Below are positions 2,279-46,390 of a stretch of DNA of 49,077 nt, piece by piece. The first letter of the stretch is position 1. Every line of letters starts with the position of its first letter. Where the stretch lies: the IMG/VR virus record IMGVR_UViG_3300022073_000015. The stretch is one strand, 5' to 3'. Under the pieces are notes generated by a model, which saw nothing but the letters and a program-made list of their open reading frames with translations, searched no databases and was not told the DNA's origin. This stretch comes from a virus. The position numbers and the translations under genes are program-made.

Positions 2279-2293
2279 ATGGGGCTTTATTTT
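2269..2293. terminator. Bidirectional intrinsic terminator between convergent genes
   Basis: gcccc-aataaat-ggggc hairpin followed by tttatttt. Lies between the stop of 1943..2278 (+) and the stop of 2287..3333 (-). Confidence 0.6.
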
Positions 2294-3333
2294 GTCAACA
2301 TGCCCACAGTGAAATTAAATTTTTGCCAGTCTTCTATTCTGAGCCATTCCGTACAACCGTCAAAACCTGTCAACTCTGCTGACGGGAAAGTGTCGTGAAA
2401 CCATTTTTCCATTGAGCGAATAAACTCACCATCTTCGGATTCAACCTGTGCAATTATATTGAAGTAGAACGGGGTGGTACGTTTTAATTCGAGCAGTCTG
2501 CGAGTCGAATCGTTTGAAATACCCACTTTCACATAGTCGTGAGTTGTGGAACGCAAGAAATAAAGTGTGCCGGGTTTTGATGTATTGTAACCATACTTAG
2601 CACAATGAGGACATCCACGACCTTGCGTTACACTGCTGGTTTGGGTATCCCACAGATGACCTTCACTACATTGAAATGTTGATTTCTTCCTTACGTTACC
2701 ACCGTACTCCACTAATGTAATACCGCGCTTATCATCATCGAGACGTTGTTGTATGATTTCTGGTGTCAGGGGGAATCGTTCAGCACAATGAGGACATCCG
2801 CGACCTCGTATTACATTGCTGGTTTTCGCACTCCATTCATGACCTTCGCTACATTGGAATGTTGATTTATTATTAACTGTACTACCGTATTCCACCAAAA
2901 TAATACCTCTCCCATCATCGTCGAGACGTTGTTGTATGATTTCTGGTGTTAACGGTACTTGTCCCGCACAATGAGGACACCCGCAGCCTTGTAATACACT
3001 GCTGGTCTCCGCACTCCACTCATGACCTTCACTACATTGGAATGTTGACTTCTTATGAGTTCTACCACCATACTCCACTAATGTAATACCGCGCTCATCA
3101 TCGTTCAGACGTTGTCGTATGACTTCTGGTGTTAAAGGGATGTTTCCGGCACAATGAGGACACCCGCAGCCTTGTAGTACACTATGGGCTGCCGCATCCC
3201 ACTCATGACCTTCACTACATCGGAAGGTTGATTTTTCCCTAACCCCACCACCATACTCAACTAACGTAATATCACGCCCATCATCATTAAGACGTTGTTG
3301 TATGATTTTCGGTGTTAATTTTCTTCCGCCCAT
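2287..3333 (-). CDS. T5orf172 (GIY-YIG-related) domain protein with four tandem zinc-ribbon modules; homing-endonuclease-like
   Basis: 348 aa. Four 61-aa repeats each end in CSEGHEW...GCGCPHCAG. The C-terminus (GTLYFLRS..YVKVGIS...GCTEWL) resembles the T5orf172/MUG113 domain. Confidence 0.6.
   Translation of the reverse strand: MGGRKLTPKIIQQRLNDDGRDITLVEYGGGVREKSTFRCSEGHEWDAAAHSVLQGCGCPHCAGNIPLTPEVIRQRLNDDERGITLVEYGGRTHKKSTFQCSEGHEWSAETSSVLQGCGCPHCAGQVPLTPEIIQQRLDDDGRGIILVEYGSTVNNKSTFQCSEGHEWSAKTSNVIRGRGCPHCAERFPLTPEIIQQRLDDDKRGITLVEYGGNVRKKSTFQCSEGHLWDTQTSSVTQGRGCPHCAKYGYNTSKPGTLYFLRSTTHDYVKVGISNDSTRRLLELKRTTPFYFNIIAQVESEDGEFIRSMEKWFHDTFPSAELTGFDGCTEWLRIEDWQKFNFTVGMLTK
2587..3318. repeat. 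Four in-frame tandem copies of a 183-bp coding repeat
   Basis: The marker cacaatgaggaca recurs at 2601, 2784, 2967 and 3150, an exact 183-bp period. Confidence 0.85.
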
Positions 3334-3363
3334 CTCGCTCGTCCACTCATAACCAACTATTAA

Positions 3364-3392
3364 ACCCTATCATTACTTGACGCGCTCGTCAA
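3364..3392 (-). promoter_or_regulatory. Dyad-type promoter (site a): TTGACG-N17-TAGGGT, with the -35 inside the dyad TTGACGcgctCGTCAA (3377-3392)
   Basis: Read on the minus strand. Points into 2287..3333. Confidence 0.6.
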
Positions 3393-3401
3393 CGATAAGG
3401 C

Positions 3402-3427
3402 AAAAAAATCCCGCCACGGAGGGCGGG
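3402..3427 (-). terminator. Intrinsic terminator of the leftward non-coding unit
   Basis: Minus strand reads cccgcc-ctccgt-ggcggg followed by attttttt. Confidence 0.75.
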
Positions 3428-3572
3428 TAAAAGTGCAGAGCGAGAGATACAAGGCGATGGTGGATTAATTCATTTCGCCGCTATTGTCACGTTTCACAAC
3501 GTTACGTTAACGACTTCGGCTTACCCTGCCGCTGGGAGACGGAGAATCACCCCCTGCCCGGTTGGTATGGGG

Positions 3573-3699
3573 TTGTGATGGCATGAATCGAACATGCTTC
3601 CATCGGTGCGCTGCCGATTGGGTTACGCGCGACTCACGGATACTTAGCTAGCTTTTCACCGTGAACCTATTCCCTAGCTCGCCATTGAGCTTCACCACA
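3573..3699 (-). ncRNA. tRNA-like element with a non-canonical cloverleaf and an extra hairpin
   Basis: All read on the minus strand:
- Acceptor tgtggtg (3699-3693) pairs with catcaca (3580-3574).
- D-arm gctc-aatggc-gagc (3690-3677).
- Extra hairpin tcacgg/ccgtga (3664-3634).
- Anticodon-like arm atcgg-cagcgca-ccgat (3618-3602); no U33.
- T-arm gcatg-ttcgatt-catgc (3597-3581). Confidence 0.35.
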
Positions 3700-3736
3700 A
3701 CGGAAAGAGCACTTAAAACTCATATCGCACGTCGAA

Positions 3737-3809
3737 ACGCCCGGCAGAGAATCGAACTCTGCAAATGCTCTTACCTGTTGTGTGGTCGGACCGCCACGAT
3801 GACCAGTCG
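3737..3809 (-). ncRNA. Degenerate tRNA-like fragment (perfect T-arm only)
   Basis: T-arm cagag-ttcgatt-ctctg (3761-3745). The acceptor pairs 6 of 7. I could not fold a D-arm or an anticodon stem. Confidence 0.2.
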
Positions 3810-3911
3810 CTGTTGTTCATACCCGGCTACACATTCCGGCTACCCGCTGTTGGTAAGAAAAAGGACCACCCCGGACCGCTAAAGGCACATGTGCTATATA
3901 CCTGCGATTTA

Positions 3912-3940
3912 AATATTGCATTGTTTGACGTGACTGTCAA
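3912..3940 (-). promoter_or_regulatory. Dyad-type promoter (site o): TTGACA-N17-AATATT, with dyad TTGACGtgacTGTCAA at 3925-3940
   Basis: Minus-strand reading. The dyad also sits between candidate -35 (ttgcat/ttgttt) and -10 (aatagt/tatact) hexamers of a rightward promoter for 3974. Confidence 0.45.
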
Positions 3941-3973
3941 TAGTATACTTAGCATTATTTTACAGGAGGTCAC

Positions 3974-4699
3974 ATGGATAAACGAAAAGCGCCCCTGCAA
4001 CTCGTCATTGACGCAGCAATGCTGGGTGCTGTAAAAGACATCTACACGTGTGTCCCCGGTTACGTCATTGCGTTTAATCCCGCCACACAACGCGCACAGG
4101 TGCAGATTGGTATTCAGCGTGTGCAGCTTGACGGGACAACGTTCGACCCGCCGCCCATTGTGGATGTACCCGTGAGCTTTCCCGGTGATGATTACGTACT
4201 GGAGTTTCAGATTGACCCCGGTTGTGAAGGTTCAATCTATTTCAGCCAGCGCTGCATTGACGGATGGAAACAGACGGGTGGTATTGCTGACAACCCTGTT
4301 GCACGTTTTCACCATCCACAGGACGCACATTTCGTACCGGGTATTCGCTCTCTGGGTAATGTTATCCCTGCATTCAGTAACAATGGTGTGAGAATCCGCG
4401 ACAAATCCGGCAACCGTCACGTGTGGATTAAGAACGATGGTGCACTGGTTGTCAAAAATACAAACGCCACCACAACATACGGTGCAGATGGGTCAGTGAT
4501 GACCAATAATACCAGTGGTCACAATAACCTGCTCGCTAATGGCAATGTGGACATTAACGGGGTTATAATTACACCGACCGGGCAGATTACGTTACCGGGT
4601 GGTGGTGGCTTAACACTCGCTAACGGCGTTGCTGCCGAAACACACCGTCACACTGGTGTACAGACCGGTGGTGGAAATTCCGGGGGACCTGTAAATTGA
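3974..4699 (+). CDS. Baseplate central spike protein (Gp138_N / Mu gp45-like)
   Basis: AGGAGG RBS at 3964-3969. The N-terminal region resembles gp138-type spikes. Glycine-rich C-terminal tip with THRHTG. Confidence 0.6.
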   Translation: MDKRKAPLQLVIDAAMLGAVKDIYTCVPGYVIAFNPATQRAQVQIGIQRVQLDGTTFDPPPIVDVPVSFPGDDYVLEFQIDPGCEGSIYFSQRCIDGWKQTGGIADNPVARFHHPQDAHFVPGIRSLGNVIPAFSNNGVRIRDKSGNRHVWIKNDGALVVKNTNATTTYGADGSVMTNNTSGHNNLLANGNVDINGVIITPTGQITLPGGGGLTLANGVAAETHRHTGVQTGGGNSGGPVN

Positions 4700-6247: not shown

Positions 6248-8073
6248 CATTTATAAAACGTGCCGACCTCGGGCGTCCCTTAACATGGGATGAGTTAGAC
6301 AGCAATTTCGAGCAGGTTGACAGTTATGCTGCTGCTGCCGCCTCTTCTGCCACTGCAGCACAAACACAGGCGCAGAGTGCGTCACAGAGCGCCCAGCAGG
6401 CTTTACAGTCTCAGCAACGGGCTGAGACTGCTGCGGCGAGTGCAGAAGGTGCTGTTGATGTACTGAGGCAGGAATTGGAAAGGAGTGTCGTATATGACAA
6501 GGACTATTCCACCATAGCAGAGGCATTTAGCCGAGCGACCATCACTGGTGCCGCTCTGGTGTTGACAGCATCCAACACAATTCGCATCCCAACTGATGCA
6601 CCTAGCTTACAGGCTGTAATAAATACGTGCTCCAGATTAAAACCCAGCGTACAACTGACGGTCATGCTTGAATCAGGCTTTAAGTTCACTGGTGAGACAC
6701 TTGTTGAGAAACGTGACTGTTCATGGATCACAATTCAATCTGTTGATTCGGTGGTTACTGCTTCTCCGACATTCACCGGCGTCAACTTACTGCATGTGGT
6801 GAATTCGTTTGGCCCAATATGGGACATTCTCGTAGATGTGGCAGGTTCTACGGTAGGGAATGGCCTTTATGTACGTAGAAATTCTGATATAGAGGTAAGA
6901 CCAGGCAAAGGGGTTATCAACGCTAAAAATAGAGCAGTCACATCGTATCCTTGCGGGATAGTAATTGTCGAATCGTCAAGAGGGCATATCCCCTCCTCAA
7001 ATTTTTCAGGAAACTACCGAAACCTTTGGGTGTCAAACTCATCTGTGTGTAATGCTGCGGGAGGAAATTTCGATAATGCAACCGGGGATTTTGCAACCCA
7101 CATTGTGCGAAACTCGTTGTGCCACCTATCTTTGGCGACGGTAAATAACGCCGCACATAACGCCGTATATGCAAACAACAGTCGTATTACCTTCCTGGAA
7201 GGGGAGGCGATTAATGCTGATACTGCACTTTCTGCTGAATTTGCAGGTGTAATTTATACCAGGCCTCGCGGTGGGACGATAACAGACATTTCAGGCTCGA
7301 GAATAAATGCAATTCACGCCTCTAATGGCGGTGTTATTATTGCTGAGGGAATGACAATCTCTCCAGCCTCTGGGTTTGGAATTACTGCCCGCGACGGCGG
7401 GAAGGTCAGTGCGGTAGGGACGTCTGTTTTAGCTAACGGCACGGCGCTGAATGCTTATAACGAGGGGGAGATAAATATAGCGGGATCTGGTAACGTGATT
7501 TCCTCTTCTTCTGCCTCGGTTAATGTAGTCAAGGCTTACCAGGGAGGGAGAATTAACCTTGATGGGGCCGTAGTGACAGGTGGAACTACTGGCTTGCTCG
7601 CTGAATCTGGTGGAACAATCCACGCTAGGGGTGTGAATGTGTCTGGGCAGGCAGCAAATACAATACAGGCAACTGGTGGCGATGTTTACGCTGATAATTC
7701 CGTGCTTTCAAAGTCTTCAGTTAATGCCGATATTGTTTATGCTCGTCGCGGAGGCATTATTAATGCCAACTTTTCGACAATTACCGGAGGGAGGATCGGG
7801 GCGCATGCAGACGTTGGTGGAAGAGTGTGTGTAAATAATTCCACTATTAGTGGTGCATCGACCAATGGAGTACGGGCCGCCGGTGGTGAAGTCAATGCTC
7901 AATCTGCGACAGTGAAGAACAATACCGGAAAGGATTTGGCGGTTTATTCTGGTGGCATATTAAGGGCTGGGGGTTCAACAACCACTAACTCTTCAGTAGC
8001 TGGAACACCAAATGCATCAGATTCCAATGTGGAATTTAATACATTCGGCGCGCCTGGGTTTATTTTTGCATAA
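6244..8073 (+). CDS. Tail fiber/tailspike with a right-handed beta-helix (pectate-lyase-like) body
   Basis: 609 aa. The N-terminus has the ELDSNF motif and an Ala/Gln-rich coiled coil. It is followed by a long run of G-G-x-I/V-x-A type beta-helix rungs. Confidence 0.6.
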   Translation: MTFIKRADLGRPLTWDELDSNFEQVDSYAAAAASSATAAQTQAQSASQSAQQALQSQQRAETAAASAEGAVDVLRQELERSVVYDKDYSTIAEAFSRATITGAALVLTASNTIRIPTDAPSLQAVINTCSRLKPSVQLTVMLESGFKFTGETLVEKRDCSWITIQSVDSVVTASPTFTGVNLLHVVNSFGPIWDILVDVAGSTVGNGLYVRRNSDIEVRPGKGVINAKNRAVTSYPCGIVIVESSRGHIPSSNFSGNYRNLWVSNSSVCNAAGGNFDNATGDFATHIVRNSLCHLSLATVNNAAHNAVYANNSRITFLEGEAINADTALSAEFAGVIYTRPRGGTITDISGSRINAIHASNGGVIIAEGMTISPASGFGITARDGGKVSAVGTSVLANGTALNAYNEGEINIAGSGNVISSSSASVNVVKAYQGGRINLDGAVVTGGTTGLLAESGGTIHARGVNVSGQAANTIQATGGDVYADNSVLSKSSVNADIVYARRGGIINANFSTITGGRIGAHADVGGRVCVNNSTISGASTNGVRAAGGEVNAQSATVKNNTGKDLAVYSGGILRAGGSTTTNSSVAGTPNASDSNVEFNTFGAPGFIFA

Positions 8074-17323: not shown

Positions 17324-17352
17324 ACTATACTCCCCATTGACGGACTCGTCAA
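17324..17352 (-). promoter_or_regulatory. Dyad-type promoter (site b): TTGACG-N17-TATAGT, dyad 17337-17352
   Basis: Minus-strand reading. Sits directly downstream of the terminator at 17362-17386. Confidence 0.65.
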
Positions 17353-18795: not shown

Positions 18796-20531
18796 TGACA
18801 CCTGTACTATCACCCGTTGCTGATGCGGTCAGTGATGCAACACGTCCAAAGTTACGACCGTATCAGCAGGAACTTAAAAATAATATTTACAACCACTGGA
18901 ATGACCACCCGCACAGTAATGCGCTGGCGGTGTTGCCGACTGGTGCAGGTAAGACAGTTTTCTTCTCGTCGGTGATTGCGGACGTCGCCGGGGCAACCTG
19001 TGCTGTTGCACACCGTCAGGAACTGGTCAGTCAGATTAGTCTTGCACTGGCGCGTAATAAAGTGCGTCACCGTATCATTGGTCCGACAAATGTTGTGAAG
19101 ATGATTGTCCGGCTGCACATGGAAGAAGTGGGTCACAGTTATTATGACCCGAACAGTCGTCATGCTGTCGCCGGTGTTGACACCCTTGTGCGTCGCGGCG
19201 ACCAGCTTGCTAACTGGCTACCTACTGTAAAATTATGGGTCATGGACGAAGCGCACCATGTGCTGCAAGATAATAAATGGGGCAAAGCAGTCAATATGTT
19301 CCGTAATGCGCGTGGGCTGGGTGTGACTGCCACGCCATCACGTGCGGACGGTTGCGGGCTGGGTTCACACGCTGACGGCGTGTTTGACAAAATGTTTGTC
19401 GGCCCATCCATGCGTGACCTGATTAATATGGGCTACCTGACCGATTATAAGCTTTATGCGCCGCCCAGTTCTTTCCGTCGTGACGCTATTAAAAAGGTCA
19501 GTCAGACGACTGGTGATTTCGTTGCATCAGAGGTAAGTAAAGCGGTCAATGAGTCCAGTCTTGTCGCACATGATGAAAAACAAATTGTGGGTGACGTGGT
19601 GCGCACATACCAGAAACTGCTTAACGGTATGCTGACGGTCGTATTTGCACCCGATGTGGCGACCGCCACAGAGCTGGAAAAGCAGTACAACGATGCGGAC
19701 ATCCCAGCAAAGTGTGTACACGGTGCAATGCCGGATGCTGAACGTATCAATGCCGTGCGTAAATTTAAAAACCGTGAATACCTCGTACTGACATCAGTGG
19801 CCATTTTCGATGAAGGCTTTGACTGCCCCGCGATTGAGGCGGTACAGGATGTATCAGCCACGGAATCTTTCGGACGGTTTGTGCAGCGTGCAGGACGCAT
19901 GTTGCGTCTGAAAGGCGGTAAGGATTTTGGGCGTTATGTTGACCACGTGGGCAATATTGAACGTCACGCTGTGATTGTTGACCACCCGGAAGGAACAAAA
20001 ATTGAACTGTGTCACCGGGAGTGGACACTTGACCGGCGTGAGAAGTCAGGTGGTAAAAGTGAGAAGTCAGCAGTACGTTCCTGTGTTGCCTGTACCAGCA
20101 CGTATGAACGTTACCTCAAAGCGTGCCCTTACTGTGGTGAACCAATACCGCAACCAGCAGCAGGACAGCGCAGCAATGTAGAATGGGTGGACGGGGATTT
20201 AAACGAGCTTGACCCCGCTGTACTGGCGCAGCTACAGGGTGAAGTTATTGGCGCACGTGAGGACGTCAATCAGTACCGAGATAAAATGATTGGTCACGGT
20301 TTACCACCTCACGCTGTGAAGAGAAACGTTAAATTACATGAAAACCGCCTTGACGCGCTCGTCAAACTTGACCTATCATTAGCCACATGGGCCGGGTATC
20401 GCCGTGCGGAAGGTCTGAGCGACAGTGAAATATTTCGCAAATTTTATCTTTCGTTTGGAATTAGTTGGATCGAGGCACAGGCGCTCAAAGCGGCTGATGC
20501 GGATAAATTAAGAGAGAGGATTGGGTTATAA
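18795..20531 (+). CDS. Superfamily 2 DEAD/DEAH-box helicase with a C-terminal zinc ribbon
   Basis: Walker A LPTGAGKT and motif II MDEAHH. CVAC...CPYCG. ATG at 18795. Confidence 0.8.
   Translation: MTPVLSPVADAVSDATRPKLRPYQQELKNNIYNHWNDHPHSNALAVLPTGAGKTVFFSSVIADVAGATCAVAHRQELVSQISLALARNKVRHRIIGPTNVVKMIVRLHMEEVGHSYYDPNSRHAVAGVDTLVRRGDQLANWLPTVKLWVMDEAHHVLQDNKWGKAVNMFRNARGLGVTATPSRADGCGLGSHADGVFDKMFVGPSMRDLINMGYLTDYKLYAPPSSFRRDAIKKVSQTTGDFVASEVSKAVNESSLVAHDEKQIVGDVVRTYQKLLNGMLTVVFAPDVATATELEKQYNDADIPAKCVHGAMPDAERINAVRKFKNREYLVLTSVAIFDEGFDCPAIEAVQDVSATESFGRFVQRAGRMLRLKGGKDFGRYVDHVGNIERHAVIVDHPEGTKIELCHREWTLDRREKSGGKSEKSAVRSCVACTSTYERYLKACPYCGEPIPQPAAGQRSNVEWVDGDLNELDPAVLAQLQGEVIGAREDVNQYRDKMIGHGLPPHAVKRNVKLHENRLDALVKLDLSLATWAGYRRAEGLSDSEIFRKFYLSFGISWIEAQALKAADADKLRERIGL
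20349..20378 (+). promoter_or_regulatory. Intragenic dyad-type promoter (site e): TTGACG-N18-TATCAT
   Basis: The 16-mer TTGACGcgctCGTCAA is identical to site a. Lies inside the helicase 3' end, about 150 nt upstream of the first methyltransferase gene. Confidence 0.4.
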
Positions 20532-21714: not shown

Positions 21715-22370
21715 TGGATATTAAAACAGAGAATACGTGGCTAATGTTTGGCGATTGTCTGGAACGTATGAGGGAGATTCCAGACGGTGGTATTGATATG
21801 GTTTTGTGTGACATTCCTTATGGTGAAGTTTCTCAAAAAAGTTCGGGTTTGAGACTGCTTGACAGAGGGAATGCCGACACATGTAACATTGACCTGATTG
21901 AAATGACAAACGAACTGAACAGAGTTTGCAGTGGTTCTTTTTATATTTTCTGTGGAACTATGCAAATCAGCACGCTGGTAGAAAATTTTAAAAACATTGG
22001 TTTAACTACCCGCGTCGGGGTATGGGAAAAGACTAACCCCAGTCCAATGAATGGTACAAAACTTTGGGTAAGTGGACTTGAATTTTGTGTGTTTGCTCGA
22101 AAACCAAAATCCACTTTCAACGAACATTGTCAAAAGGCGTTATGGCAAGCACCATCCGGAAGAGCGAAAATACATCCCACAGAGAAACCTGTCAAACTAA
22201 TTGAGCGGTTGATTATTGCATCGAGTAACGAAGGCGACACTGTACTGGATAATACGATGGGCAGCGGTACTACCGGTGTTGCGTGTCGCAATACAAACCG
22301 CAAATTTATAGGTATTGAAATGGACCCCACATACTATGGTATTGCTTGTGGTCGCATACTGAGTAGTTGA
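21714..22370 (+). CDS. DNA methyltransferase (N6A/N4C, beta class), paralog 2
   Basis: CDIPYG and HPTEKP. Its C-terminal 45 aa differ from paralog 1 at a single residue. Confidence 0.85.
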   Translation: MDIKTENTWLMFGDCLERMREIPDGGIDMVLCDIPYGEVSQKSSGLRLLDRGNADTCNIDLIEMTNELNRVCSGSFYIFCGTMQISTLVENFKNIGLTTRVGVWEKTNPSPMNGTKLWVSGLEFCVFARKPKSTFNEHCQKALWQAPSGRAKIHPTEKPVKLIERLIIASSNEGDTVLDNTMGSGTTGVACRNTNRKFIGIEMDPTYYGIACGRILSS

Positions 22371-22395
22371 CCATCCCGTCAACGCGTGTCATACT
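22367..22395 (+). promoter_or_regulatory. Dyad-type promoter (site f): TTGACC-N17-CATACT, dyad TTGACCatccCGTCAA
   Basis: Overlaps the stop codon of methyltransferase 2. Points into the TetR-like gene. Confidence 0.5.
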
Positions 22396-25681: not shown

Positions 25682-25710
25682 TTGACGGACTCGTCAAGGT
25701 GAGATAGATT
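25682..25710 (+). promoter_or_regulatory. Dyad-type promoter (site g): TTGACG-N17-TAGATT
   Basis: Dyad TTGACGgactCGTCAA at 25682-25697. Points into 25743. Confidence 0.65.
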
Positions 25711-34755: not shown

Positions 34756-34785
34756 AGTCTACCCCACCTTTGACGGACTCGTCAA
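34756..34785 (-). promoter_or_regulatory. Dyad-type promoter (site i): TTGACG-N18-TAGACT, dyad 34770-34785
   Basis: Minus-strand reading. Confidence 0.6.
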
Positions 34786-41859: not shown

Positions 41860-41888
41860 ACTCTATACTCTCTTGACGCACTCGTCAA
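41860..41888 (-). promoter_or_regulatory. Dyad-type promoter (site k): TTGACG-N17-TAGAGT, dyad 41873-41888
   Basis: Minus-strand reading, 4 nt after the dUTPase stop. Confidence 0.6.
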
Positions 41889-46360: not shown

Positions 46361-46390
46361 TTGACGCACTCGTCAACAATTGATTATAAT
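46361..46390 (+). promoter_or_regulatory. Dyad-type promoter (site m): TTGACG-N18-TATAAT
   Basis: Dyad TTGACGcactCGTCAA at 46361-46376. Points into the chaperone and tape-measure genes. Confidence 0.7.

Follow-up and report, generated by a model that had tools for sequence, protein, structure and literature searches.

Comparative evidence for a conserved tRNA-shaped RNA in a modular non-coding unit of a Jedunavirus-like phage and in unrelated phages

The non-coding unit and its tRNA-shaped element

The window analyzed here, a stretch of 49,077 nucleotides from the IMG/VR virus record IMGVR_UViG_3300022073_000015, belongs to a Jedunavirus-like myovirus. Between a minus-strand open reading frame (ORF) at 2287-3333 and a plus-strand ORF at 3974-4699 it contains a gap of 640 bp (3334-3973). 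The plus-strand ORF combines a phage N-terminal domain with a GpV apex motif and corresponds to the baseplate spike according to annotation in relatives, and the minus-strand ORF has Pfam matches to DUF4379, CapR, MUG113 and, weakly, T5orf172, and is also matched by a PHROG endonuclease family. The gap holds one promoter-to-terminator, non-coding and modular RNA unit on the minus strand (3940-3402), and within it lies the subject of this study, a tRNA-shaped element that we designate R1 (Table 1). An earlier note on this DNA had predicted both ends of the unit. The promoter scan returned exactly the site that the note had named, and the terminator scan found the expected stem (3427-3410) followed by a T-run. 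Since shuffled sequences also yield one promoter-like site (mean 1.0), the support for the promoter lies in its conservation in relatives. The statement that the gap has no credible ORF needs qualification, as ORFs of 30-89 amino acids exist; coding is nevertheless argued against by the conservation of the RNA pairs and by irregularly sized indels in two alignments, one of four Jedunavirus phages (A3) and one of 29 diverse copies of the 5' part of the unit (A4).

According to an alignment of 63 distinct R1 sequences (A2), which is the basis for the RNAalifold fold, the pair counts and the covariance model, R1 forms six helices: a 9-bp acceptor, a D arm, a 3-bp stem closing an insert, the hairpin of this insert, an anticodon-like arm with a 5-bp stem and a 7-nt loop, and a T arm. 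The fold that had been drawn by eye around the second of two T-arms in the gap, with its acceptor, D-arm, hairpin-forming insertion of ~57 nt, anticodon-like arm and 4-nt variable region, is thus present as described. The earlier note had also named lack of conservation at the paired positions as an observation that would speak against this fold. In A2, 98.2% of the pair cells are kept, compared to 31-47% with slid partners, and 15 of the 31 pairs change on both sides, values that were reached by none of 500 shuffles. G-U pairs are frequent and occur on this strand only (pair 20:137, for example, is UA in 29 and UG in 29 sequences), and because of this strand specificity R1 appears to act as RNA and not as duplex DNA. 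We therefore consider it highly probable that R1 represents a genuine structured RNA family.

Several features that set R1 apart from a tRNA are fixed in the family. A fifth arm of 56-58 nt between the D and anticodon arms is found in every member, and the GCGCGUA linker is invariant in A2. The anticodon-like loop reads YAGCGCA, rarely YAUCGCA or AAUCGCA, and has A33 and C37 in all 63 sequences, which agrees with the previous remark that this loop lacks U33. As A33 and C37 are invariant, R1 would be unable to decode. The nucleotides of the tRNA elbow are invariant as well, namely GG in the D loop and G-UUCGA-(U/C)-U-C in the T arm. In the window, the HK75 type and the GGGG-type, a CCA sequence can be made out 3' of an acceptor of 8 or 9 bp; Skate-type and L019-type members lack it (L numbers denote loci of our collection). 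Because the pairs are kept or compensated and the apparent defects, that is the inserted arm, A33 and C37, are themselves invariant or compensated, R1 is, as judged by sequence comparison, a conserved tRNA-shaped RNA and not a decaying tRNA gene. Of the two alternatives that had been raised, a decayed tRNA is thus rejected for R1, and a tRNA mimic is supported, as a statement on structure, by the covariation and the invariant elbow. On paper, the GCGCGUA linker could form a pseudoknot with the YAGCGCA loop, but the few variants (L167, L170, L061 and L115) alter one side only and so lend this no support.

The apex of the fifth arm carries a hexamer that is self-complementary in 63 of 63 sequences despite occurring in six forms (ACTAGT, TCGCGA, TCTAGA, GCTAGC, TCTGGA and ACCGGT). 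Its outer pair varies between A-U, U-A and G-C, and the adjacent central bases between UA, GC, CG and UG. The hexamer was tested on alignment columns; loops defined by the minimum free energy (MFE) fold were uninformative, since RNAfold closes small stems inside the loop. As the adjacent central bases covary, yet cannot pair with each other within one molecule, the simplest interpretation at the RNA level would be a loop-loop (kissing) homodimerization, which this covariation suggests.

Automated detectors do not recognize R1. ARAGORN called no tRNA or transfer-messenger RNA (tmRNA) in the window, and no R1 copy there or in the ~80 related loci scanned. Rfam at the gathering score likewise missed R1: the window gave no match, and the 18 related loci that were searched gave none beyond genuine neighboring tRNAs. 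At E<=10 no tRNA, tmRNA, Y-RNA or RNase P match appeared in the window either, and the sole weak matches in the region were to terminator hairpins of unrelated small RNAs (sRNAs). R1 fits neither tRNAs nor tRNA pseudogenes, tmRNAs or Y RNAs. With its fifth arm, A33 and C37 it departs from canonical tRNAs, whose four arms and elbow nucleotides it otherwise has, and is called as such by no detector; the pairing statistics given above are incompatible with a tRNA pseudogene; neither ARAGORN nor Rfam supports a tmRNA; and an affiliation with YrlA and other Y RNAs is contradicted both by the missing Rfam match at E<=10 and by the ends of R1, which form an acceptor helix. No open-access paper holds the exact strings of R1 or of the 5' core described below, and keyword searches gave no description (the subscription literature was outside this search). 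The R1 family is thus absent from Rfam, from the annotation by the Prokaryotic Genome Annotation Pipeline (PGAP) and from the open-access papers searched; tRNA mimicry itself is already known.

The two perfect minus-strand T-arms in the gap, each with a perfect stem of 5-6 bp, can both be read directly from the sequence as had been noted. Throughout the 49 kb of the window the string GTTCGATTC is found at just two sites, 3757-3749 and 3593-3585, both of them on the minus strand; chance gives a mean of 0.46 matches, and two or more were obtained in 8 of 100 shuffles. The two arms are, however, not equivalent: the second is part of the conserved element R1, whereas the first lies in a variable loop (V1) and is not conserved. 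V1 in Geezett, KB2 and KsaM-C1 is unrelated in sequence to that of the window, so that the first T-arm is absent from the closest relatives, and only 3 of 38 distinct V1 sequences contain the T-loop motif. The R1 covariance model also found no second, degenerate copy at this position. We regard the first T-arm as a lineage-specific feature, which may well be a tRNA fragment.

Table 1. Features of the minus-strand RNA unit, in window coordinates and in order of transcription.
Feature	Position	Strand	Basis or remarks
Sigma-70-type promoter TTGACA-N17-AATATT, extended -10 TG	3912..3940	-	Promoter scan; 10/12 consensus matches; kept in Jedunavirus relatives (A3)
5' core RNA domain, conserved	3784..3903	-	~85% identity in Jedunavirus relatives; alignment A4
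5' core, P1 hairpin	3903-3899 with 3887-3883	-	Loop UAUAGCACAUG (also given as UAUGGCACAUG); 11-nt loop conserved in A4
5' core, invariant AGCGGUCCG	3880-3872	-	Followed by variable hairpin
5' core, invariant 19-nt AGCGGGUAGCCGGAAUGUG	3848-3830	-	
5' core, H-type pseudoknot	GCGA 3810-3807 with UCGU 3799-3796; GGUC 3804-3801 with GACC 3787-3784	-	
Long hairpin H	3696..3783	-	5' strand ACACAACAGGUAAGAGCA 3783-3766; 3' strand GUGCUCUUUCCGUUGUG 3712-3696; encloses V1 (3765-3713)
First T-arm GCAGAG-UUCGAUU-CUCUGC, at 5' end of V1	3744..3762	-	Direct sequence reading
R1 tRNA-like RNA with leader	3565..3713	-	Covariance model, 157 bits, E=1e-36, sole window match
R1 acceptor	3701-3693 with 3580-3572	-	7 bp including one G-U pair, 9 bp if extended; then AA at positions 8-9
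R1 D arm GCTC-AATGGC-GAGC	3690-3677	-	
R1 extra-arm closing stem	GGG 3674-3672 with CCC 3622-3620	-	
R1 extra-arm hairpin	3667-3659 with 3639-3631	-	
Self-complementary hexamer GCUAGC, extra-arm apex	3647..3652	-	Alignment-column test
R1 invariant linker GCGCGUAA	3630-3623	-	
R1 anticodon-like arm ATCGG-CAGCGCA-CCGAT	3618-3602	-	Loop CAGCGCA 3613-3607
R1 4-nt variable region GGAA	3601-3598	-	
R1 T arm	3597-3581	-	
3' tail, tRNA-like module to terminator	3428..3571	-	Conserved in part
Intrinsic terminator CCCGCC-CUCCGU-GGCGGG, then A and U7	3402..3427	-	Terminator scan

The surrounding RNA, its payload slot and its carriers

While a non-coding unit with a tRNA-like fold was correctly recognized before, it had been missed that this fold is one module of a larger conserved RNA. 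Outside R1, conservation of the gap is confined to relatives of the window itself and does not extend to other R1 carriers. The segment 3960-3762 is ~85% identical in Jedunavirus phages, and the four phages in A3 have the promoter, the 5' domain, the 3' tail and the invariant strings AACAGGTAAGAGCATT and AGTGCTCTTTCCGTTGTG in common, with divergence setting in after each string. These two strings are complementary and pair with each other in the hairpin H described below. Part of the 3' tail (3564-3470) is also kept, with an identity of 95% for KsaM-C1 and of 81% for Geezett-type phages. The 5' core is a structured RNA of wider occurrence: A4 supports its 5' hairpin, the 11-nt loop of which is conserved, and its H-type pseudoknot, with 97.7% of the cells paired, 10 of 18 pairs compensated and slid controls at 25-49%. 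Its 19-nt motif AGCGGGTAGCCGGAATGTG matches more than 119 IMG/VR contigs, and the core (loci L219-L333) is found in mEp390, just after the repressor gene, in epsilon15-like phages, where it occupies the terminase-portal interval on the opposite strand, and in other named phages. No Rfam family matched it in the window (E<=10) or in related loci. The strings GUCCGGG, GGUAAGAGC and ACGACAG were considered as signs of a reduced RNase P RNA, a candidate that was discarded as no Rfam RNase P model matched at E<=10.

Some annotations of related loci touch on the 5' core. In the RefSeq record of KB2, two small hypothetical proteins are called over it (L217 1506-1700 and 1729-1806); these calls are probably spurious and placed on a non-coding RNA. 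The annotation of epsilon15 has an RNase III site adjoining the match to the core. The RNA unit of the epsilon15-like prophage L221 is followed downstream by a gene (7389-7754) of the N4 gp49 / Sf6 gene 66 family (Pfam PF13876). N4-like phages are also matched by a 60-nt segment of a related RNA module, which hints at an association of the RNA module with this protein family.

Core and R1 are linked by the long hairpin H, a helix of ~17 bp with a predicted duplex energy of -22.3 kcal/mol that is present in the MFE fold of the whole transcript. A partner box for H lies 38-77 nt upstream of R1 in HK75, 611R6, PhiR5_2, Skate-type phages, Akira, PdC23 and ST1UNAM, and all R1 copies with this leader have such a box, with predicted duplexes of -21 to -25 kcal/mol. 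Compensatory variants of the hairpin were found in L229 and L293. Two partners are available to GUUGUG, the final six bases of H: pairing with the upstream CACAAC extends H, whereas pairing with a second CACAAC, which ends the payload on its 3' side, forms the acceptor.

What follows hairpin H differs between phages. In the window, L034, L038 and others this slot is filled by R1. In L221, L256, L269, L255, L329 and L326 a genuine tRNA-Arg(UCU) takes its place directly after the leader CCGTTGTG, right after CCGTT; in L221 this tRNA (7107-7183) directly follows the leader AGTGCTCTTTCCGTT. The slot of KsaM-C1, KB2 and CUS-3 contains a longer tRNA-like RNA with a 9-nt T-like loop. The CUS-3 payload measures ~225 nt and has the T-like arm GUCGG-AGUUCAGCA-CCGAC; its motifs GGUCCG and UAUGGCACA also occur in the 5' core. 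A hammerhead-like CUGAUGA..GAA in the KsaM-C1-type payload was dropped upon inspection, which found no complementary stem II. Geezett has a sequence in the slot that is not tRNA-like, and ST1UNAM carries two hairpin-payload units in tandem. In prophage PP10 of enteropathogenic Escherichia coli (EPEC) E2348/69 (L333 3001-3560), the same 5' core and hairpin are followed by a tRNA-like payload of 113 nt, for which the original annotation uses the name ncR36 and PGAP the label 'pseudogenic tRNA-Gly'. RIL-seq (ligation-based sequencing of RNA interactions) found an abundant Hfq-bound sRNA immediately downstream of this payload and upstream of E2348C_2757 (PMC8550237), so this sister locus is transcribed and yields discrete RNAs.

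Scaffolds that are 80-85% identical can thus contain different payloads, as seen when the window, the pair KsaM-C1 and KB2, and Geezett are compared. Because payloads turn over between such near-identical scaffolds, an accessory, conflict-related role of the payloads is suggested. (A BLAST clustering of payload types was set aside, as types merged through their shared flanks.) The GenBank record of CUS-3 annotates the flanks of the slot as 'boundary sequence' bsq4 and bsq3 (L335 1449-1512 and 1804-2044), and the conserved hairpin starts where bsq4 ends. GCACAACAGGTAAGAGCATT and AGTGCTCTT..CGTTGTG are common to unrelated phages and bracket different payloads. The flanking hairpin boxes, and not R1, correspond to the definition of lambdoid boundary sequences.

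R1 itself is spread more widely than the rest of the gap. In a BLAST search against ~50,000 phage records, only 3570-3716 of the gap was matched, by ~93 records at 77-85% identity, and these phages are otherwise unrelated to the window. In Skatevirus and Akiravirus Salmonella siphoviruses, R1 sits on the opposite strand in a gap that separates tail genes, and a true tRNA-Ile, tRNA-Met or tRNA-Arg follows ~100 nt downstream in Akira, Seszw and gmqsjt-1; ARAGORN found no such neighboring tRNA in the window or in lambdoid carriers. The lambdoid phage HK75, the P22-like 611R6 and a Lambdavirus have R1 between Q-pR'-tR' and holin on the late strand, and the Pantoea phage PdC23 carries it as well. 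An exact-pattern scan placed R1 in more than 119 IMG/VR contigs. It was also detected in genomes of four enterobacterial species and on one contig of a metagenome-assembled genome labelled Cellvibrionaceae. Of 5,426 complete E. coli genomes, at least 146 contain the HK75-type R1 at full length, and PGAP annotates nothing under it.

In L012, R1 comes directly after a lambda-type nutL (boxA GCTCTTA and boxB GCCCTGAAGAAGGGC; ~7800-7885). A canonical boxA, GCTCTTTAACAA, occurs in several related loci (L022, L241, L275, L278 and L299), and the 3' strand of hairpin H (UGCUCUUU...) resembles boxA. Antitermination by Nus factors may keep Rho away from these long RNAs, which are untranslated. R1 has copies of the Rfam sRNA STnc100 just downstream in PhiR5_2 (L006 2791-2984 and 3260-3469) and in the IMG/VR prophage L019 (7060-7262), so that several non-coding RNAs appear to be stacked between Q and the lysis genes. 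The ileZ-argN-argO island of 933W was considered as a further R1 locus and rejected, as it has no hairpin box and only a 20-bit match on ileZ. No R1 was found at the EPEC loci PasD and PasA or in CUS-3; PasB is located elsewhere, and svsR is unrelated and lies at the 3' end of cI.

Possible functions and relation to known RNAs

We tentatively favor the view that R1 is a tRNA mimic which would be excised by tRNA-processing enzymes and act in trans, a caution that applies to the whole chain of events. The unit would be transcribed as a precursor of ~500 nt, from which RNase P and the nucleases of 3' tRNA maturation would excise R1 as they do from a tRNA precursor, with RNase III possibly cutting hairpin H. 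This excision would also free the 5' core RNA and the 3' tail. R1 keeps the parts that are read by tRNA processing and modification enzymes, namely the acceptor helix, the D arm with its GG and the UUCGAUU T arm, which together provide the elbow. The freed R1 could then persist as a stable tRNA-shaped RNA, probably a homodimer via the self-complementary apical loop of its fifth arm, and might occupy a tRNA-binding factor in trans. The most plausible target, and the most economical guess, would be a host tRNA-directed defense or toxin enzyme.

A number of observations weigh against this view. The energy of single-sequence folding is no better than that of shuffles, with a z-score of -0.38 when the element is folded and of -0.56 when the whole transcript is, so the evidence for the fold rests on sequence comparison and not on thermodynamics. 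Because the full hairpin H and the tRNA-like fold may compete, the latter may form only conditionally, and full tRNA-like maturation is uncertain as a 3' CCA is not kept across classes. That a plain tRNA can fill the same slot suggests that selection could be for processing alone. The palindromic hexamer could be a site at the DNA level. Moreover, R1 was linked neither to a tRNA-targeting defense system nor to a partner protein, and its carriers share no obvious gene. The counts given above overstate the number of independent events, given the high redundancy of E. coli genomes and of IMG/VR prophage contigs.

The strongest competing explanation, although in our judgment a rather unlikely one, is that R1 acts in cis as 'tRNA punctuation', recruiting RNase P and 3' tRNA nucleases to define the ends of flanking RNAs and being functionless once excised. 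These flanking RNAs could be the 5' core, the sRNA-like 3' tail or, in lambdoid phages, the mRNA of the lysis genes. There are precedents for such an arrangement in MALAT1/mascRNA and in the maturation of the P1/P7 C4 and P4 CI RNAs by RNase P, and it would fit with R1 always being embedded in a longer transcript, with an ordinary tRNA-Arg(UCU) filling its slot and with the abundance of the Hfq-bound sRNA just 3' of the homologous EPEC payload. For this task, however, a minihelix of acceptor and T-arm would do, yet conservation or covariation across unrelated phages also extends to the fifth arm with its palindromic apex, to the GCGCGUA linker and to the YAGCGCA loop. A role in trans is favored over punctuation because these parts are under selection beyond the needs of processing, and because R1 moves as a unit, independent of its flanks, among unrelated transcription contexts. 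A more ambitious version of the trans role would combine all modules in an exchangeable RNA cassette system, with a pseudoknotted core and 'boundary' hairpins framing tRNA-shaped payloads and with R1 as a kissing-loop homodimer that traps a host tRNA-targeting nuclease or toxin in an arms race of RNA decoys; in this full form we think it quite improbable.

The conserved sequences could also be selected as DNA, the inverted boxes and the palindromic hexamer serving as recombination 'boundary' or protein-binding sites for cassette exchange and the RNA structure being a by-product. Conserved boxes common to very different phages do flank the payload, neighboring relatives do have different payloads, the CUS-3 slot flanks are annotated as bsq4 and bsq3, and the hexamers are perfect DNA palindromes. 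Recombination at the boxes would account for payload exchange but not for the conserved interior of R1, and the compensatory changes inside payload helices with their frequent strand-specific G-U pairs, the conserved elbow nucleotides and the consistent orientation of promoter and terminator all make an explanation at the DNA level very unlikely. Integron attC-like sites in particular were dismissed on inspection, as GTTGTGG has a T and CCACAAC a C at an R position of the GTTRRRY/RYYYAAC cores. Likewise, no integrase was present among the annotated genes flanking the carriers that were looked at, these being the baseplate spike and endonuclease-like genes in the window and Q and holin or tail genes elsewhere. 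It is more improbable still that the T-arms are remains of decayed tRNA genes in a tRNA island beside a homing-endonuclease-like gene. The isolated first T-arm, unconserved and located in a variable loop, would fit such a history, as would T-arm fragments in other V1 variants, true tRNAs in sister loci and the PGAP label of the EPEC payload. Against it stand the retention and compensation of pairs in R1, the A33, C37 and inserted arm that are invariant instead of scattered defects, and Geezett, the one relative whose downstream flank was read, which has no endonuclease gene downstream of the unit. Least credible to us is a working tRNA with an intron-like insertion that would decode Arg (anticodon GCG or UCG) once the extra arm is removed. 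The anticodon-like arm is indeed canonical in size, including the 4-nt variable region, and position 34 varies between G and U while 35-36 stay CG. Bacteria, however, are not known to have a splicing system for an insertion between positions 26 and 27. Furthermore, neither A33 nor C37 varies, structural selection acts on the inserted arm itself, and ARAGORN, which permits introns, never calls R1.

The nearest analogues of R1 are the species 1 and 2 RNAs of T4 (rnaC, 139 nt, and rnaD, 119 nt), stable phage RNAs that have been assigned no function. Their genes directly follow tRNA-Arg in a tRNA operon, and the GIY-YIG homing endonuclease gene segB lies in the cluster. RnaC ends in the T-arm CCGGG-UUCGAAU-CCCGG and an acceptor-like 3' strand, and resembles R1 in size, tRNA-like end and expanded interior. 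The R1 model, however, gives it 15.7 bits, essentially for the T-arm, versus 155-175 bits for full-length members, and homology beyond the T-arm is not detectable. As compared here, by T-arm and model score, R1 differs from rnaC in its five-helix fold with covariation and its palindromic apical loop. YrlA, on which Chen et al. wrote in RNA in 2014, is reportedly an Rsr/Ro-bound tRNA mimic and a substrate of tRNA-modifying and tRNA-processing enzymes. Like R1, it is a non-decoding RNA of enterobacteria and phages and mimics the tRNA elbow with D and T arms, but its ends form the Ro-binding stem and its acceptor-like helix is capped, whereas the ends of R1 form the acceptor. In the P1/P7 C4 antisense RNA, the P4 CI RNA and MALAT1-mascRNA, a tRNA-like module in a longer transcript lets RNase P define the ends. 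By analogy, the same processing logic is proposed for R1, although these RNAs are without a fifth arm and palindromic loop, and Rfam gave no match to R1, including its C4 antisense model.

As for the putative dimer, the dimerization initiation site (DIS) of HIV-1 is a kissing-loop homodimer. ROOL and GOLLD are phage-associated and often found near tRNA genes. Together with OLE they are homo-oligomeric ornate RNAs (PMC12286853). R1 resembles kissing-loop RNAs in its self-complementary apical loop of 6 nt, which varies only within self-complementarity; it is far smaller, and its putative dimer is suggested by the covariation. In lambdoid mosaicism, boundary sequences are short conserved junction sequences that are thought to focus homologous recombination (PMC3233612). 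These sequences are described as DNA recombination foci, whereas the conserved boxes described here form an RNA hairpin with compensatory changes and bracket structured RNA payloads.

The R1 family is common: a few percent of complete E. coli genomes carry it, and among lambdoid and P22-like phages it is found in well-studied types, where it separates Q/tR' from the lysis genes. RNAs of this type are overlooked by standard annotation or labelled as pseudo-tRNAs, and the R1 covariance model would improve the annotation of phages and prophages. If R1 truly were a decoy for tRNA-directed defenses, it would represent an RNA-only class of phage counter-defense and explain part of the non-coding DNA of phages. 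Boundary boxes in the form of RNA hairpins that bracket interchangeable RNAs, including real tRNAs, would offer a testable handle on module exchange at lambdoid junctions.

The adjacent endonuclease-like gene and a repeated dyad

The endonuclease-like gene at 2287-3333 (minus strand; DUF4379 zinc fingers, CapR and MUG113/T5orf172) is situated 3' of the terminator of the RNA unit and has a dyad-type promoter of its own. It looks like a mobile insertion, because an unrelated gene on the opposite strand follows the RNA unit at the same place in Geezett. Since the gene is absent there and most other R1 carriers have no endonuclease nearby, the tie between the tRNA-like region and a T5orf172-like gene that the earlier note had drawn is incidental.

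The -35 element of the promoter of the RNA unit lies within the dyad TTGACAGTCACGTCAA, one of nine copies of TTGACNNNNNNGTCAA in the window (3377-3392, 3925-3940, 17337-17352, 20350-20365, 22367-22382, 25682-25697, 34770-34785, 41873-41888 and 46361-46376). Most copies read TTGACG(G/C)(A/G)CTCGTCAA, and the nine copies compare with a chance expectation of 0.09. Two of them overlap the -35 regions of promoters flanking the RNA unit, and the dyad looks like a phage-specific promoter or operator motif.

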